This document shows positions 4,572 to 26,455 of a stretch of DNA of 27,511 nt, one piece after another. A program made the position numbers and the translations under genes. Origin of the DNA: a virus (lineage: Duplodnaviria > Heunggongvirae > Uroviricota > Caudoviricetes); IMG/VR virus record IMGVR_UViG_2537562015_000010; one strand, 5' to 3'. Every line of letters starts with the position of its first letter. Position 1 is the first letter of the stretch. Under the pieces are notes generated by a model. That model worked only from the letters and a program-made list of their open reading frames with translations. It had not been told where the DNA came from and made no database searches.

Positions 4572-5460
4572 TACGCCCACCTTCGCTGATGGTGAATGAC
4601 TCACAGCGCGCCGCCTGTATGTCGCTGATGGCCATATTCTGTGTGGGTTCGATTATCTCCACGCGTTGCACACCGTGCACATGCAGTGCGGCAGCAATGG
4701 CGGACAACGCCACGTCCTGACCGATAAGCCCCTGCTCAGCCAGCCACTTCCTGAACGACGATTCAGCCGCAGCCAGAATAGGTTCGGATTCCGGGCCGGG
4801 ATAAAAGTACAGTTTTGCATTCAGCCGCCATGTCACGATTCTGGCACTCTGTACGGTCAGGCGGTCGGCCACCGGGCGGGTATCCTCTGCATTCAGAACG
4901 GCGCGAACGGTATTAAGCAACGCCTCCGTTGCTGTGCCGTCGCCTTCAGTGGACAGGATGGAAACCGTCACGTTGGCCGGAGACGGGCTGATGGCCCGCG
5001 CGTCACGTACCAGACCGCTGGCGCTGCGTGCAAAATACTCGTATGCACCTGACGGGCCAGCAACACTCAGACCGTCATACGCCCGTTGCGCCCGCAGTCT
5101 CAGCGAGGTGTCACTTTCCATCACCGCGTCGGTGGTATCCGTTGCCGGAGTGATAACCAGGCGCTTTGTGTTCATATTGCCCGCGAGGTTGTCCAGGTCT
5201 GTCCCGGCGCTGTGGCTTAGCATGCAGGCGCGTGCACCCTCATTGACCCGCTGGCGTAACAGCATTTCACGAAACGACATGGTTTGAGCGATAACGTTCA
5301 GGGGTTCCGATTCCAGCTCCAGCGCGGCGGAAACGGCTTCACGCTGTTCGGCGGGATAAGCCGCAATCATCATGGCCTTTGTGTCAGCCAGAATTGCCTC
5401 AAAGTCAGGCTCCGCGATGATGGCGGGTTCCGGTAACTGGGAAAGGTCAACGGCAGGCAT
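4564..5460 (-). CDS. J: Baseplate assembly protein, P2 gpJ-like
   Basis: 298-aa protein, MPAVDLSQLPEP...RPVADRLTVQSA...LYFYPGPESEPI matches P2 gpJ over its length; ATG at 5458-5460. Confidence 0.9.
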   Translation of the reverse strand: MPAVDLSQLPEPAIIAEPDFEAILADTKAMMIAAYPAEQREAVSAALELESEPLNVIAQTMSFREMLLRQRVNEGARACMLSHSAGTDLDNLAGNMNTKRLVITPATDTTDAVMESDTSLRLRAQRAYDGLSVAGPSGAYEYFARSASGLVRDARAISPSPANVTVSILSTEGDGTATEALLNTVRAVLNAEDTRPVADRLTVQSARIVTWRLNAKLYFYPGPESEPILAAAESSFRKWLAEQGLIGQDVALSAIAAALHVHGVQRVEIIEPTQNMAISDIQAARCESFTISEGGRNE

Positions 5461-18894: not shown

Positions 18895-19005
18895 CGTTTA
18901 CGGGATTCTGAAATCCCGTTTTTGCCTGTTTTATGCGCGCTTCATATATCGCGGCGCGTTTTTTGCTCATTTACGGGATTTGTGAATCCCGTTTCTGTCT
19001 GTTTT
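18895..19005. repeat. Two 38-bp direct repeats, each containing the palindrome ACGGGATT-N4-AATCCCGT
   Basis: Repeat 1 at 18895-18932 (A-parM intergenic) and repeat 2 at 18968-19005 (inside the last codons of gpA); 31 of 38 positions identical; 73-bp period. Confidence 0.5.
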
Positions 19006-21782
19006 TTGTTTCCACTGGTCAGGCCACCCCGCAGCAGGTCTGCTTTGCGGCGGGCGCGTTCAGTGGTTTCACTGATTCTCTGTGCGTGCTCTGCGTCGCG
19101 GATGGCGCGCAGCATGTCAGAAAGCACGGTAACGGGGGTTTTCATGGTGTTCTGGTCTTGCTGAAGTGTGGATGCCAGGCGTGCGGCGGCTTCGGGGTCT
19201 GACGCCCCCAGCTGTTCCAGATAGCTGGCGACCGGGTTATGGCAGATCTCCGTGCTGCTTACGCCGTGGTTACGGCTCAGGCGCTGCCAGAGCTGCGTGA
19301 TCCGGCTGTCCGGTCGGGTATCCGGTTTGCGTACAATTTCAAATCCCTGCGGTGCAATGATGCTGCCGTCAACGTACAGACTGCCGCCCCGTAACAGGTG
19401 CTGCATCTGCTGTTCACCGATATGCAGGCCGAGAGATTCAGCAGACTCCCGCCATTCTTTAGCGAGTAATTCGTGGTTATCAGGCAAAGGCCGCGGCTGT
19501 TTGCGGCTCTGTGTCCAGTTCTGCATTTCATCACTGTTGTTTTTTGCCTGTTTGTCACGCAGCGAACGCATCAGCGCCCGGCGTTCGTGCCGTTTCAGTG
19601 AGCGCATCCATTCGTTCACTTCAACACCGTCAGGGATCTGCGGCCACGGTGCTGGCCGTTCTTCCGGCTGTTCTGTCCCGTTGTTGTCCGTTTCCTGTAC
19701 ACGGGGACAGTTATTGCCACGAGTCCAAGGGGCGGCAGGGCCGCCCTGAAGGTCAAAACCATTTTCGCGGGTGCTGTCTTCCGCTTCCGGTTTGCGTCTT
19801 ACCAGCTTCCAGTTATCCGGATGCGTGCACACACGGGAGGATTCCCCGATGAGTGGTGACCAGATCCCATAAATCTGTACGCTCTGTTCGCCGTAATCGT
19901 TCAGCTCTTCTGCGAGGTCGTAGGCGGTGCGAATCAGGTAGTCTTTGCGTGGAACAAGTACGCCACCCTGTTTCTCAATGTAGGTGGCAAAACATCCGGC
20001 ATCAGCGGCAGCGAGTACCGCATCCATTGCGTCATCCTTCAGCCGTTGCGGGCCTTCCGGGTTGCGTGCCATCTGGCTGGCAAGGCGGCGCAGTTCACGC
20101 CACACCTGACGGGAGGGGATACCAAAGAACTGGAACTGGCGGACCCGGTGAAGGCGCGCCCAGCCGATGGCGCGTTCCACGCTCTCGGCCATTGATTTTC
20201 CGGTTTCGTGGTCAACGCGTGGCTTGCCCGTTTTCGGGTCGATGCCATCCACGGCGCGGCTGTCCAGGTTCTTTCCGATGTAGGTGGCGATGTAGCTGGT
20301 TGGCGTGCCTTTTGAGCCGTCGACGTACTCCGCCTTAAAACGCGGAGTTATGTCATCGCCCAGCTCGTGGCGGTCTTCCTGAATGGCAATATCGCGGGTG
20401 TGGGACACGATGGTGTCGATTTCTTCCGGATGTGCAAAGACCATCATATGCCAGTGCACAGTGCCGTCATGGTGAGGCTCCACCGTGCGGATGCCATACC
20501 AGCGAAGACCGTCGCGGTTCAGTTTTTTGCGGACCGCCGCAAAAAACGTGTTAACCAGGTAATCGCTGGAGTCGCGCATGGTGGCCCCGTTCCATTTGGG
20601 ATTCGGATGGCCGTTCTCTGTTGTGGCGTGGTATTTTGACGGGCAGGTGACAGTCAGAAACACCGCTTTGTCGCCACGGGCTTCGGCCAGAAGTTCCAGT
20701 CCCTTCATGGTGGCCATCATTTCTGCCTTACGGTGAACCGGGTTACTTACTCCCGCGTAATACACCGTCTCGAGATCAATCGTGAACCCGTCTTCGTTTT
20801 CCAGCATGAAACTTTTCAGGAAATCGCGTGTTTTCTCGCGCTGTGCGCGAAACTCGCTTAACGCGTCCTGGCTCAGATAGGGTGATGTTTTTCTGGAAAC
20901 CAGACAGGCGGCGCGGAGTTGTTCTTCCCGCCACTCGCAACGTAACAGCCACAGTTTGCGCTTCCACCAGTCCGCACAGGTCAGGCGAAGGATTGCACCC
21001 GGCAGCAGCTCTGTGTCCGGTTCGTTCCTCCGGTCTTTGTCTGTTGTCAGTACGTCATAATGCGGAGGCATGGCGTGCAGGTGTAACGCCATGCGGGCCA
21101 GCATCTGATACGCCTTCAGGGTTACATCCATGGTCAGCTCGCCATCGGTCGCGCCAAAGCCGTCGCAGAGTTTTTCGAAGGTGCTGCTGAACATTGCCGC
21201 CGTCATGGTGGCCAGCGTCTGTATCTGGCGCTTGTTAAGCTGCGGCAGGTAAAGCAAATCGTCCAGGCGTTCGCGTCCGGCAAGGGCGCGATAACCCGGT
21301 GTCAGCCAGCGGCTGTCGGTGCGCTCCAGACGTTCGAATATTTTGCGCAGGGTTCCGCGCGCGTAGCGTTCAGCCTGCCAGCTCTTTTTGCCTTTCTGGC
21401 GATCGGCTTCCTGTTTTTTGCGCAGGAAAGAGAGGTGGCGGCTCAGTGGTTCACGCAGATAAACAGGTAGTGCCTTTAGTGTGGCAAAGGCACGGGCTAC
21501 TGGGTCTTGTTCTGTTGCCCGGCGCTTACTGATGATGCTCTGTGTCAGCTTTTCACGCTGTCCGGCTTCCTCAAGGGATGCCATGAGTTTTTTACCCATG
21601 GCGGATTGTGCGAAAAAGGCTTCTTCCTTCGCTTCCTGTTCTTCCTGTGCCCTTTTGTCTGCCTCAAGGTAGTAACGGATGGCGCGTTGCAGGTCGGTTT
21701 CAGTTTCCTGCCTGCGCTCCGTAAATCTGGCCGGATCAATGGCTGGCCGTGGTTCATTCCAGCTCCATGCAAACTCGCTCAT
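18942..21782 (-). CDS. A: Replication initiator (rolling-circle nickase), P2 gpA-like
   Basis: RTVEPHHDGTVHWHMMVF (HUH motif) and SYIATYIGKN match P2 gpA; preferred start is ATG 21780-21782 in an ATGA overlap with the upstream ORF (the ORF track begins at GTG 21809); about 946 aa, longer than P2 gpA at both ends. Confidence 0.85.
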   Translation of the reverse strand: MSEFAWSWNEPRPAIDPARFTERRQETETDLQRAIRYYLEADKRAQEEQEAKEEAFFAQSAMGKKLMASLEEAGQREKLTQSIISKRRATEQDPVARAFATLKALPVYLREPLSRHLSFLRKKQEADRQKGKKSWQAERYARGTLRKIFERLERTDSRWLTPGYRALAGRERLDDLLYLPQLNKRQIQTLATMTAAMFSSTFEKLCDGFGATDGELTMDVTLKAYQMLARMALHLHAMPPHYDVLTTDKDRRNEPDTELLPGAILRLTCADWWKRKLWLLRCEWREEQLRAACLVSRKTSPYLSQDALSEFRAQREKTRDFLKSFMLENEDGFTIDLETVYYAGVSNPVHRKAEMMATMKGLELLAEARGDKAVFLTVTCPSKYHATTENGHPNPKWNGATMRDSSDYLVNTFFAAVRKKLNRDGLRWYGIRTVEPHHDGTVHWHMMVFAHPEEIDTIVSHTRDIAIQEDRHELGDDITPRFKAEYVDGSKGTPTSYIATYIGKNLDSRAVDGIDPKTGKPRVDHETGKSMAESVERAIGWARLHRVRQFQFFGIPSRQVWRELRRLASQMARNPEGPQRLKDDAMDAVLAAADAGCFATYIEKQGGVLVPRKDYLIRTAYDLAEELNDYGEQSVQIYGIWSPLIGESSRVCTHPDNWKLVRRKPEAEDSTRENGFDLQGGPAAPWTRGNNCPRVQETDNNGTEQPEERPAPWPQIPDGVEVNEWMRSLKRHERRALMRSLRDKQAKNNSDEMQNWTQSRKQPRPLPDNHELLAKEWRESAESLGLHIGEQQMQHLLRGGSLYVDGSIIAPQGFEIVRKPDTRPDSRITQLWQRLSRNHGVSSTEICHNPVASYLEQLGASDPEAAARLASTLQQDQNTMKTPVTVLSDMLRAIRDAEHAQRISETTERARRKADLLRGGLTSGNKKQTETGFTNPVNEQKTRRDI

Positions 21783-22168
21783 GGCTGGTATCCCGTCACG
21801 CGCTGCCACTCCTGCGAGAAGATGGCGGAAAGGCGGTTAAATTCAGCGGTGTATTCACTCAGCGAGGCACACCCGCCAGCAGTGCGATGCGCCAGCATTG
21901 CCGCGAATACGGAGGCCGGGGAGTCGTAATACGCCAGCAGTGATTCGCCGTGTGGTGTCAGGCAGTGCAACGCCAGCCCGTGTGGTGTGAAGTCCACGCG
22001 GTAGCAGTCGTCTACTGTGAAATAAAGGGTGTCCACATTCTCCGGTTTTGTAGTGCGTGCTCTGTTGTCACGACCACGGATATAAAGATCAAATAATCCC
22101 TGAAGAACGGGAGCCAGACGGGTGTCCTGTGTGCGCACCCATCTTGTGAAGTCATGAGCGTCAATCAT
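21779..22168 (-). CDS. Hypothetical early protein
   Basis: ORF coupled to gpA by an ATGA overlap; first ATG at 22166-22168 (the ORF track begins at TTG 22198); no recognisable motif. Confidence 0.4.
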   Translation of the reverse strand: MIDAHDFTRWVRTQDTRLAPVLQGLFDLYIRGRDNRARTTKPENVDTLYFTVDDCYRVDFTPHGLALHCLTPHGESLLAYYDSPASVFAAMLAHRTAGGCASLSEYTAEFNRLSAIFSQEWQRVTGYQP

Positions 22169-22240
22169 GCTGCAATTCTCTTTACTACAGATGTGCAAAG
22201 GCCTCCCGCCGCAAGGTGCAGGAAAGGCCCGGAACAGGAA

Positions 22241-22471
22241 TTAATGGAGTTTGTTTTGCTGCTGGATGAGCTGCTGAAGCTCGCGCAGATCATCCGCCAG
22301 ATAGCTGAAAACAGCGGATGAATAGAGGTTTGAAAGTTCGCAGCTACGCTCATGCAGCATATTGATGTGCATGATTTTAGCGACGCGGAATGCGCGGGAA
22401 AGTCTGCGGTTGATTTCAGTCTGGATGTGACGACGCTCCGCGATAGCGCGGTGCTGTTTGCGGTTTGCCAT
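22241..22471 (-). CDS. Hypothetical 76-aa basic protein
   Basis: ATG at 22469-22471 with AAGAGG upstream; arginine-rich N-terminus; a single Cys, so not an Ogr-type zinc finger. Confidence 0.4.
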   Translation of the reverse strand: MANRKQHRAIAERRHIQTEINRRLSRAFRVAKIMHINMLHERSCELSNLYSSAVFSYLADDLRELQQLIQQQNKLH

Positions 22472-22838
22472 GATATGTGGCCTCTTGTAGTAAGTTGTGA
22501 AAACTCACCATCCAGAGGTTCCAAGCTCGGGGTGGTGAGACGTACAGGGTTGGAACTACCGGCTACAAGAGATCCCGGCCCGACCGAAATCGGCCCCGTA
22601 CGCCCCACCATAATTCGTGTGCGAAAAAGACGTGGCAATACAGTACGCACAAAAAAACCGCTGGCGCGGTTGTGCGCTCTTGTAGTCTGCGGGGTTCCAA
22701 TCCCGGCACCCGTTTTATGAGGTGCAGCGAAAATGTAACCTGACTGATTGCGGCATGGCAAGCGGTTTTTTTGTGAGAACGGCATACTAAAAAATCCTGA
22801 TACTGCTCCGGCCAGCGGTTTTCACTGGCCGGGTTTAA
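22472..22838 (-). promoter_or_regulatory. Structured non-coding leader with repeated CTCTTGTAG motifs and terminator-like hairpins
   Basis: CTCTTGTAG at 22483-22491 and 22677-22685 with its reverse complement at 22563-22571; GGTTCCAA / TTGGAAC pairing inside; minus-strand hairpin plus U7 at about 22650-22672; strong hairpin at about 22810-22835. Confidence 0.35.
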
Positions 22839-23669
22839 TTACTTCACCGGAACAAACGGAACAGCGGTGTTACTGGTCATGTATTGCGGTAGCGTGCCGT
22901 TCCATTTGTTAATCGCTTCCAGCTCCATAACGCCGGGATTCTGGCGCAGAGCTTCACCGCGTAAACGAATGGCGTCGGCTTCAGCCTGGGCTTTTGTGCG
23001 AATGGCATCGGCCTGTCCGGCTGCTTCTGCGCGTAGCATGTTGGCTTCTGCTTCACGCTGCTTGACTTCCTGTTCGCGTTGCAGGGTTTTCTGGTTTGCC
23101 GTGACTTTGGCATTAATGCTGTCGATAACGGTTGGCGGGTATTCCGGCTTACCCACATAAGAGAGGCTCATTACCTGAATGCCGATAGGTGTCATTTCTG
23201 CCTGAATGTCTTTAAGTGCTGAATCCAGCAGTTCAGACTTGCCACCGTCGATAAATTTATCGGTGGTCATTTTGCTGGCCAGTCGGTTGAGTGCGTCGGC
23301 GATCTTCTGGCGCAGGTCAGTGTCGGTAATGTCATCCACGCCTTTGCGGTAGGTCTGAAACACTGTAGTAACTTTGGATGGATCAACCTTGTAGGCCACA
23401 CCGATGTGATAGCCGATGGTTGTGCCGTCACTCATCTGAAAGCTGAACGGCTCATCGTAGGTCTTCATTTGTTTGAAGGTCGGGAAGATGTAAACCTCGG
23501 TATTCCAGCCAGTCCAGTAGCGACCAACGCCAACCACTTCGCCAACGCCTTTGTCGTCGCCCAGCTTGTTGACTTTGATGCCCACATTACCTGGCTCAAC
23601 GCGATCGCAGCCAACCAGCAGGATGGCGGCAAAAAGCGGGAGAATCTGAAAGAGTCTGAATTTCTTCAT
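22839..23669 (-). CDS. SPFH/band-7 (prohibitin/HflC-like) lipoprotein
   Basis: 276 aa; signal peptide with lipobox LLVGC; central SPFH-like region and a C-terminal Ala/Glu/Arg-rich coiled coil (QREAEANMLRAEAAGQADAIRTKAQAEADAIRLRGEA). Confidence 0.7.
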   Translation of the reverse strand: MKKFRLFQILPLFAAILLVGCDRVEPGNVGIKVNKLGDDKGVGEVVGVGRYWTGWNTEVYIFPTFKQMKTYDEPFSFQMSDGTTIGYHIGVAYKVDPSKVTTVFQTYRKGVDDITDTDLRQKIADALNRLASKMTTDKFIDGGKSELLDSALKDIQAEMTPIGIQVMSLSYVGKPEYPPTVIDSINAKVTANQKTLQREQEVKQREAEANMLRAEAAGQADAIRTKAQAEADAIRLRGEALRQNPGVMELEAINKWNGTLPQYMTSNTAVPFVPVK

Positions 23670-23869
23670 TGTTTAATTTCCTTGATGTACTTACTGAAAA
23701 GGCGAACAACGCCTGCCGGGTACAGCATGGCAATGAAAATGCCCAGCAATACCAGGAAGGAGCTGTCTGATGAAATCATTCGGGGGAGTAGTCCTGCATA
23801 CAGAATGAGAGAAACGAGGACGCATACCAGCGCCCACATGTATGCGCGAAACCAGGTCTTTTTGTTCAT
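23666..23869 (-). CDS. Small two-transmembrane protein coupled to the SPFH lipoprotein
   Basis: 67 aa, two hydrophobic helices (WALVCVLVSLILYAGLL, FLVLLGIFIAMLYPAGVV); ATG at 23867-23869 with AAGGA upstream; 4-nt overlap with the SPFH gene start. Confidence 0.5.
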   Translation of the reverse strand: MNKKTWFRAYMWALVCVLVSLILYAGLLPRMISSDSSFLVLLGIFIAMLYPAGVVRLFSKYIKEIKQ

Positions 23870-26104: not shown

Positions 26105-26152
26105 TCAAACTCATTTGTATAAACATTAATACAGACGTTGGAGAATTGCAAC

Positions 26153-26455
26153 ATGCGTATGACTATTGGAGAGCGCATAAAAATCATGCGTGAAAGCGAG
26201 AGACTTACTAGCCTCCCGGATACAGCAAAAATGCTTGGTTTAAACCGTGATGCTCTGTGGAGATATGAAAGCGGTAAAACTATCCCTAATGCTGAAGTAA
26301 TTGAGCAAATACTAAACAACCCCAGATTTGAGAAATATGCGTTGTGGTTTATGACTGGGAAAATTGCGCCTGAATCCGGGCAGATAGCTCCGGCTCTCGC
26401 ACACTATGGGCAAGAGCCAACGGACTTACCCCCATCCGAAAGGAAAATTGGCTAA
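26153..26455 (+). CDS. C: Immunity repressor, P2 C-like
   Basis: FEKYALWFMTGKIAPESGQIAPALAHYGQ matches P2 C (FTKYTLWFMTNQIAPESGQIAPALAHFGQ); preferred start ATG 26153 (alternative 26159; the ORF track begins at TTG 26138). Confidence 0.85.
   Translation: MRMTIGERIKIMRESERLTSLPDTAKMLGLNRDALWRYESGKTIPNAEVIEQILNNPRFEKYALWFMTGKIAPESGQIAPALAHYGQEPTDLPPSERKIG

Follow-up and report, generated by a model that had tools for sequence, protein, structure and literature searches.

An IsrK–C4 RNA module with covarying recognition sites at the ribosome-binding site of a small gene in a P88-type prophage

The spacer 22472–22838 and its two RNA genes

The window analysed here, a stretch of 27,511 nucleotides (nt) of viral DNA (IMG/VR record IMGVR_UViG_2537562015_000010), is a P2-like prophage, and the element in question is the interval 22472–22838, which on the minus strand makes up the entire spacer from the stop codon of the gene for an SPFH/Band-7 lipoprotein (23669..22839) to the ATG of a gene encoding a protein of 76 amino acids (aa; 22471..22241). 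An earlier note on this DNA had described the interval as one structured 367-nt leader and had proposed an Rfam covariance-model scan as a check. Scanning the whole window returned exactly two matches above the gathering score, both in the spacer, both on the minus strand and both full length, and in place of a single leader we therefore describe two discrete RNA genes, isrK (RF01394) and C4 (RF01695). No cis-regulatory Rfam family matches the spacer in the same scan. The two RNAs and their immediate parts are as follows.

22761..22732, minus strand: promoter-like site, TTGCCA-18-TACATT, sigma-70-like with 9/12 matches, ending 7 nt before the IsrK 5′ end
22725..22651, minus strand: IsrK/seqA-like small RNA, Rfam isrK (RF01394), 71.3 bits against a gathering score of 50, model positions 1–77 of 77
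22671..22651, minus strand: IsrK terminator, AACCGC-GCCA-GCGGTT, a 6-bp GC-rich stem (22671..22656) with U7 (22657..22651), matched by the terminator scan
22615..22528, minus strand: C4/P4 CI-type antisense RNA, Rfam C4 (RF01695), 79.2 bits against a gathering score of 45, model positions 1–87 of 87, E = 3e-14

Folded alone, each RNA reproduces the consensus structure of its family. IsrK forms three hairpins, the last of which is the intrinsic terminator according to both the predicted fold and the terminator scan. C4 forms a 17-bp closing stem with two hairpins, and its minimum free energy (MFE) fold is the consensus (88 nt, MFE –43.8 kcal/mol, z = –4.1); this is the enclosed, internally paired domain that had been noticed earlier. 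A sigma-70-like site is present at the position equivalent to that upstream of IsrK in 17 of 17 compared loci.

Between and around these RNAs lie three copies of each of two short recognition sites, which we label a and b after the Rfam family 'a1, b1 targets of C4 antisense RNA' (RF03163, c4-a1b1).

22700..22694, minus strand: b1, UUGGAAC, in the loop of IsrK hairpin 2, complementary to b2
22685..22677, minus strand: a1, CUACAAGAG, in a single-stranded linker of IsrK, complementary to a2
22563..22571, minus strand: a2, CUCUUGUAG, in the 12-nt loop of C4 hairpin 2, the complement of CTACAAGAG
22556..22550, minus strand: b2, GUUCCAA, in a single-stranded junction of C4
22524..22518, minus strand: b′, UUGGAAC, 4 nt past the C4 end, first target site on the mRNA
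22490..22482, minus strand: a′, CUACAAGAG, second target site, single-stranded in the fold and overlapping the Shine-Dalgarno GAGG (22484..22481)
22539..22504, minus strand: alternative hairpin, CUCACCA (22539..22533, the 3′ strand of the C4 closing stem) with UGGUGAG (22510..22504, a repeat of its 5′ strand)

Read 5′ to 3′, the order is promoter, IsrK (b1, a1, terminator), C4 (a2, b2), b′, a′ with the Shine-Dalgarno, and ATG. The GAGG stands 9 nt before the ATG at 22471, and it is this ribosome-binding site, as had been proposed, that the complementary copy addresses: a′ (22490..22482) and its complement in C4 (22563–22571) lie 73 nt apart, close to the 70 nt given before, and the third copy of the motif that had been seen upstream is a1 (22685..22677, minus strand), inside IsrK. 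The C4 sites are exactly complementary to both targets over 9 and 7 nt. In the 27.5 kb of the window there are exactly three copies of CTACAAGAG, two of them on the minus strand and the third as the complement, and a stretch of 210 nt holds them all; shuffled sequence has a mean of 0.07, and none of 100 shuffles reached three. The b 7-mer likewise occurs just three times (TTGGAAC at 22700..22694 and 22524..22518, its complement at 22550–22556). Every element of the earlier description is present where the note had put it, far beyond chance expectation. The b triplet, the promoter-like site, the assignment of the terminator to a separate upstream small RNA and the family identity of both RNAs go beyond the earlier note.

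That note had also suggested that a nested hairpin followed by U7 could terminate transcription, with an outer stem as a competing pairing. The terminator is borne out, as the scan match that belongs to IsrK; the competition is not, since there is no overlap. The a1:a2 pairing encloses the terminator hairpin without overlapping it and cannot therefore be a simple anti-terminator. A different exclusive pairing does exist downstream, where the alternative hairpin places b′ in its loop, is mutually exclusive with the C4 fold and forms in the MFE structure of the isolated target. It could serve target presentation or the control of processing, or could be the counterpart of the structure A/B switch of Gifsy-1.

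Several further candidates in the spacer were tried and set aside. A separate promoter for C4 (TTGCCA-17-AATTAT, 22638..22610, minus strand) is left uncertain, its –35 element reading TCGCCA in about half of the close relatives; the –10 element falls in the conserved AAUUAUGG 5′ flank of C4, and the –35 element is not conserved. In lambdoid loci the spacer between IsrK and C4 is only 24 nt long and of unrelated sequence. For LexA control of the module, the sole CTGT-N8-ACAG of the window lies inside gene A, at chance level, and a LexA half-site in the IsrK–C4 spacer, TACTGTAT, is not conserved in relatives.

Covariation of the recognition sites among relatives

Two sets of relatives were compared. 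The diverse set consists of the window and 16 fetched loci, namely P88, two others of Xuanwuvirus type, nine lambdoid or Stx loci, one Yersinia phage, phiKO2, the P1-like RCS47, and P4. The close-relative set consists of 86 P88-like loci, including 83 further ones that were retrieved via the 76-aa protein (3 genome contigs and 80 viral contigs). Because the MAFFT alignment of the 17 diverse loci (A1) is out of register at a′, the statistics for this site were taken from a register-free search of cognate against non-cognate combinations and from the close-relative alignment (A2), in which the formal pair counts refer to 20 distinct sequences.

All 16 fetched loci carry IsrK followed by C4 in the same order, and in these loci too the target overlaps or adjoins the first gene's ribosome-binding site. 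In every one of the 17 diverse loci b2 shows exact complementarity over 7 nt to b1 as well as to b′, though its sequence varies by locus; a2 pairs over 9.0 nt on average with a site at or next to the Shine-Dalgarno. Taking a and b together, the complementarity between C4 and its cognate target amounts to 16.0 nt, against 8.45 nt for non-cognate combinations; 0 of 20000 permutations reach the observed value, and the IsrK target behaves likewise.

Among the 86 P88-like loci we found 5 types of b and 13 types of a in at least 18 combinations, and in every combination all three copies have switched jointly, the exceptions being single end or wobble positions. The window, for example, has a = CTACAAGAG and b = TTGGAAC, and P88 has a = CAACTACAG and b = TTTCCAC. 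The pair counts over the 20 distinct sequences are as follows.

a2:a′: 6 of 9 pairs changed on both sides, 97% of cells paired
b2:b′: 4 of 7 pairs changed on both sides, 100% of cells paired
a1:a2: 7 of 9 pairs changed on both sides, 100% of cells paired
b1:b2: 4 of 7 pairs changed on both sides, 100% of cells paired

When the partner is slid by 1–3 columns as a control, about 40% of the cells pair. For nine of ten whole-structure measures none of 500 shuffles reaches the observed value, and for the tenth (further pair types) 7 of 500 do. Stem covariation is also seen in C4 in the close relatives, and the alternative hairpin has compensatory changes in 5 of 7 pairs, with 96.6% of cells paired, in the 17 diverse loci. 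Conservation of the pairing across relatives, on which the earlier note had staked its proposal, thus came out strongly positive, the pairing being kept by compensatory changes.

One locus separates the recognition sites from the gene that they precede: Escherichia albertii NBRC 107761 shares the 76-aa protein with the window at 100% identity, yet its b reads TTGCAAC and a reads CAACTACAG, which indicates that the recognition sites exchange independently of the flanking gene. We also considered whether the same a2 and b2 specificity occurs in other kinds of element. The exact 22-mer spanning both sites is present in only 5 IMG/VR contigs, each with an epsilon-like gene 100 nt downstream of a2 like the window itself, and this search gave no evidence of cross-talk with satellites. 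Nor is the module a general feature of the P2 family, as P2 and 186 have no Rfam match at all.

Two observations on individual loci are recorded here. In the Yersinia phage vB_YpM_41 a ryfA RNA match of 134.6 bits (115–413 of the fetched locus, minus strand) lies about 1 kb upstream of the IsrK–C4 module. An assembly labelled 'Vagococcus sp. WN89Y' (Firmicutes; NZ_JBQPOM010000071.1) has a 226-kb contig on which a P88-like leader of enterobacterial type accompanies an epsilon-like gene (84% aa identity), which probably reflects contamination or mislabelling.

The presumably controlled genes, the overlapping reading frame and the prophage setting

Downstream of and across the two RNA genes lie the following protein-coding features, to which the repressor gene elsewhere in the window is added.

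22471..22241, minus strand: 76-aa epsilon-like gene, Pfam Derepression (PF25738), 29.5 bits against a cut-off of 27
22785..22165, minus strand: Ash/Eta-like open reading frame (ORF) of 206 codons (ORF206), Pfam Phage_ASH (PF10554), 30.3 bits against a cut-off of 26, residues 17–100
22168..21779, minus strand: orf129, PHROG 3237, function unassigned, in the same predicted transcription unit as the 76-aa gene
21809..18942, minus strand: replication gene A, 955 aa, Pfam Phage_GPA, its start overlapped by orf129, in the same predicted unit
26138..26455, plus strand: P2 C-type immunity repressor, E = 5.4e-25 to the P2 C protein (PDB 2XCJ/2L49)

The 76-aa protein shows 29% identity to P4 epsilon (E) (E = 1e-8) and is 84–100% identical among the 83 further loci. 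Its variable sites are distributed over the three codon positions as 24/22/40, a third-position excess which indicates that selection acts on the 76-aa frame. The P2 C repressor is bound by the anti-repressor P4 E (PMC2995052), and by analogy the P2 C-type repressor of the window is presumed to be the target of the epsilon-like protein.

ORF206 begins upstream of the IsrK promoter, spans IsrK, C4 and, in another frame, the whole epsilon-like gene, and ends in a TGA that overlaps the ATG of orf129 (ATGA, 22168..22165). Of 83 close relatives, 79 keep this frame open over at least 190 codons and share its end point. The corresponding ORF of P4, and of most lambdoid loci, shares its frame with the gene that comes first downstream. 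For P4 eta, translation from the upstream promoter prevents termination and transcription escapes immunity; from the constitutive internal promoter come the RNAs alone, with Kil added on read-through (PMC10111431). The annotation of the phage 186 record states that translation through to the end of the upstream ORF is apparently needed for translation of A. If ORF206 matters, the act of its translation is more likely to count than the protein, since its frame shows no codon-position signal.

Annotation of this stretch is inconsistent among the records compared. RefSeq has the ORF206 stretch as an incomplete 'ash family protein' pseudogene; P88 carries a 'hypothetical protein' over the RNA genes on the opposite strand, 705R2 a 205-aa hypothetical protein, and Stx phages long 'Rha/transcriptional regulator' coding sequences that begin upstream of the RNAs. 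Protein features cover the IsrK and C4 genes at 5033–5221, 1489–2106, 1155–2306 and 1206–1445 in four of these records (L001, L004, L005 and L100, respectively), and a single record, LC710661, annotates IsrK and C4 as non-coding RNAs. The Phage_ASH match of ORF206 (residues 17–100, window 22486–22737, minus strand) coincides exactly with the IsrK and C4 RNA genes.

The window as a whole carries capsid, portal, terminase and tail genes, a gene A nickase, a Cox-like gene and the P2 C repressor homologue, and it shares 93% identity over 22200–22900 with Escherichia phage P88 (genus Xuanwuvirus, Peduoviridae). The leader is present in 1236 of 5426 complete E. coli genomes (∼23%), and blastn found it in 176 phage records. 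The gene A product, at 955 aa, is about 190 aa longer than P2 A (761 aa, coding sequence of 2286 nt), the extra length lying outside the Phage_GPA domain (residues 195–518). On the other side of the spacer, directly upstream of the IsrK promoter, the SPFH/Band-7 lipoprotein gene (276 aa) and a gene for a 67-aa membrane protein (PHROG 'moron') occupy 22839–23869 on the minus strand. The pair is also found in P88 and some E. coli prophages and is missing in Shae_phiSM, 705R2 and others, in which similarity to the window begins only at the promoter; it looks like an inserted cargo cassette. A GC-rich hairpin (22832..22808) follows it, with no adjoining U-run.

A probable immunity module of the P4 CI/P1 c4 type: model, alternatives and known systems

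The spacer belongs to the IsrK and C4 families, has their architecture, carries two sites in three covarying copies and has its target at a ribosome-binding site. We consider it highly probable that it is an IsrK–C4 antisense-RNA immunity module of the P4 CI/P1 c4 type, residing in a P2-like prophage of the P88/Xuanwuvirus type. The steps of the mechanism set out below are taken from P1, P4 and Gifsy-1 and from background on c4 and CI.

The promoter at 22761..22732 would drive IsrK, with its decoy sites b1 and a1, and would still be active in the lysogen. Most transcripts would end at the IsrK terminator, and read-through would yield C4, the epsilon-like mRNA, orf129 and gene A. By analogy with its relatives, C4 would be released from the precursor by RNase P and act in trans, possibly in cis as well. 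Exposing a2 and b2, it would pair with b′ and a′ and keep 30S subunits from binding at the epsilon-like gene, and transcription of the RNA, left untranslated, would then end prematurely, before gene A, in a Rho-dependent manner if the relatives are a guide. In the lysogen the anti-repressor and gene A would in this way be kept silent despite an active promoter. IsrK, which has the same two target sites, would compete for or titrate C4 and set a threshold. During lytic growth, transcripts from the early operon promoter would allow ORF206 to be translated through the terminator, C4 and the target sites, and its ribosomes would couple into orf129 and gene A, which would escape immunity as in the case of P4 eta. 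The a and b sequences, which differ between otherwise near-identical phages, would fix immunity specificity, that is, which C4 silences which phage; by this analogy C4 is a putative trans-acting immunity factor whose specificity depends on a and b, a role for which the 18 or more covarying specificity types are indirect support.

A number of points weigh against this interpretation. The covariation fits pairing in cis and pairing in trans alike, and trans action, RNase P cleavage and Rho-dependent termination are assumed here entirely from relatives. In Gifsy-1 IsrK activates rather than represses the downstream gene, and co-expression of the orf45 (STnc1160) region with IsrK strengthened the IsrK-mediated growth arrest and brought no relief (PMC4825925), so that the sign and hierarchy of the interactions are not uniform within the family. 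The assignment of the 76-aa protein as a homologue of the P4 epsilon derepression/anti-repressor protein is weak, its sequence identity being low and its Pfam score just above the cut-off. Finally, there is the missing codon-position signal of ORF206, and the Phage_ASH family may owe its form mostly to conservation of RNA sequence and structure and less to constraint on a protein.

The first of these points leads to the possibility of a purely cis-acting leader, in which the nascent transcript folds, the upstream copy sequesters the ribosome-binding site and the U7 terminator and outer stem are alternatives, with no RNA acting in trans. The complementary sites do lie on one transcript, 73 nt apart, and a conserved alternative hairpin is present. 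The anti-Shine-Dalgarno copy, however, is part of a loop in a full-length C4 match that folds on its own with high stability and whose counterpart in P1 and P4 is an RNase P substrate and a repressor or immunity RNA (PMC5499578, PMC3632133, PMC10111431). The terminator lies upstream of C4 and is overlapped by neither the a nor the b pairing, so these pairings do not switch it directly, and the a1/b1 copy in a separately terminated small RNA is left without explanation. We regard such a leader as very unlikely. Of what the earlier note had offered, namely a riboregulatory or attenuation leader or a small RNA locus, the RNA regulatory locus stands, with two Rfam families to its name, and the cis attenuation leader does not. 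Positive control of the type described in Gifsy-1 deserves more weight: here IsrK would be the main regulator, a trans-acting RNA that opens the ribosome-binding site by way of the read-through transcript or of C4 and so turns on the anti-repressor, and C4 would be secondary. The IsrK family and the architecture are those of Gifsy-1, where this behaviour has been shown, and IsrK has exact copies of both target sites with which it could compete for C4. Such an activity is nonetheless compatible with the antisense-immunity model, of which it would form the anti-antisense arm, and as a separate explanation it appears rather unlikely to us.

The annotations suggest yet another explanation, that the region is merely protein-coding (the 'ash family protein' of PGAP/GenBank) and the repeats are incidental, in keeping with an ORF that spans the region, has a Phage_ASH match and stays open in nearly all relatives. 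Against this stand the two covariance-model matches of 71 and 79 bits, the compensatory variation in three copies, for which there is no protein explanation, variable sites that have no codon-position bias in the ORF206 frame, and the marking of the ORF by RefSeq as an incomplete pseudogene. P4 eta, moreover, is an equivalent ORF that coexists with the RNA genes and does not replace them. A protein-only reading of the spacer was rejected, and we give it hardly any credence.

A more specific version of the immunity model is put forward tentatively, as a possibility that may well prove mistaken: the module would guard the phage's own epsilon-type anti-repressor and gene A, a and b would form a freely re-assorting two-part barcode under diversifying selection among phages that have 88–100% identity in the controlled protein, and the Eta-like ORF would be the lytic bypass. 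If this is true, phages of the P88/Xuanwuvirus type have a second, RNA-based layer of immunity that P2 and 186 lack, there is selection for heteroimmunity or for insulation from P4-like satellites with the same system, and a frame-shifted Eta-like ORF is kept open solely for being translated.

The IsrK–C4 immunity system has already been described for P4, P1/P7, N15 and lambdoid prophages (PMC3632133), and the module of the window is an ordinary member of that family, real and very well supported, with no new mechanism. In the searchable literature we found no description of IsrK–C4 in P2-like phages, of a link between it and an epsilon-type gene in any phage whose repressor is of the P2 C type, or of an out-of-frame Eta-like ORF; the P88 genome paper reports induction by mitomycin C and mentions neither derepression nor a small RNA. 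The identification explains a conserved 'intergenic' region that is routinely mis-annotated as an 'ash family' pseudogene or hypothetical protein, and assigns to a P2-like phage of the helper type an RNA immunity circuit as in P4 and P1, with a gene for an epsilon-like anti-repressor. The two sites, each in three copies and with at least 18 variants between them, further amount to a natural record of compensatory change that is unusually clean and could be used to study the evolution of antisense-RNA specificity and to predict heteroimmunity groups from sequence only.

Among the known systems, Gifsy-1 of Salmonella (isrK – STnc1160 – orf45 – anrP) holds the founding member of the isrK family. 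There the mRNA arises by read-through of the terminator, a stable processed RNA follows, and the circuit ends in an anti-repressor and prophage induction, features that the model proposes for the window too. Gifsy-1 also has a 30-nt IsrK:orf45 helix. It differs in being lambdoid, in that IsrK is described as an activator working via alternative structures, and in that the long ORF or anti-repressor is in frame in lambdoid loci. The phage phiKO2, with an icd-antA-antB locus of the N15 type, has IsrK, c4-a1b1 and C4 matches upstream of its icd/antA/antB homologues; it is a linear plasmid-prophage, differs in its set of anti-repressor genes and pairs over only 8 nt at a′. On the c4-a1b1 model (RF03163) the IsrK of the window scores only 19 bits against a gathering score of 46.7.

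The immI region of P1/P7 is arranged as a1b1 – c4 RNA – a′b′ – icd – ant, and the P1-like RCS47 has IsrK and C4 upstream of ant with the same two-site logic of a and b. The output in P1, control of an anti-repressor of a protein repressor (PMC8201110), is also the one proposed for the window. Its C4 is an RNase P substrate, and in P1/P7 and P4 the mature C4 RNA of ∼77–79 nt is made from a longer precursor by this enzyme (PMC5499578). In RCS47 the ORF that comes first downstream (MATVPT...) begins like that of P4 (MATTLT...), with the Ant gene next in line; the window has one small epsilon-type protein instead. The first ORF beyond C4 starts alike in P4, RCS47 and most of the compared lambdoid loci, with MAT(I/V/T)P(T/A)L..P(E/D), and continues into differing C-terminal domains; the P88 group has the epsilon-like gene in its place.

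In P4 the order is PLE – seqA – CI RNA (seqB) – seqC – kil/eta – epsilon – alpha. P4 is a satellite, whereas the window represents a P2-like phage that is complete and encodes a C repressor itself. IsrK and C4 are separated by 35 nt here and by 107 nt in P4, the first controlled gene is epsilon-like here and kil in P4, the long ORF here has a different frame from the first gene and in P4 is nested in frame, and the replication protein is gpA (HUH nickase) here and the alpha primase in P4; a proposed homology of orf139 to P4 orf151 was dropped, as no similarity was found. The two also have features in common. Both Rfam matches occur in P4 in the same order and coincide with seqA and the CI RNA (PMC3632133, PMC4825925), and a promoter stands just upstream of IsrK/seqA, PLE being the positional equivalent of the promoter-like site of the window. 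The two-site complementarity has both upstream and downstream targets, with the downstream one at the ribosome-binding site of the first gene, the long Ash/Eta ORF takes in the RNA genes from a start ahead of the internal promoter, and epsilon or an epsilon-like gene lies downstream together with a replication gene.

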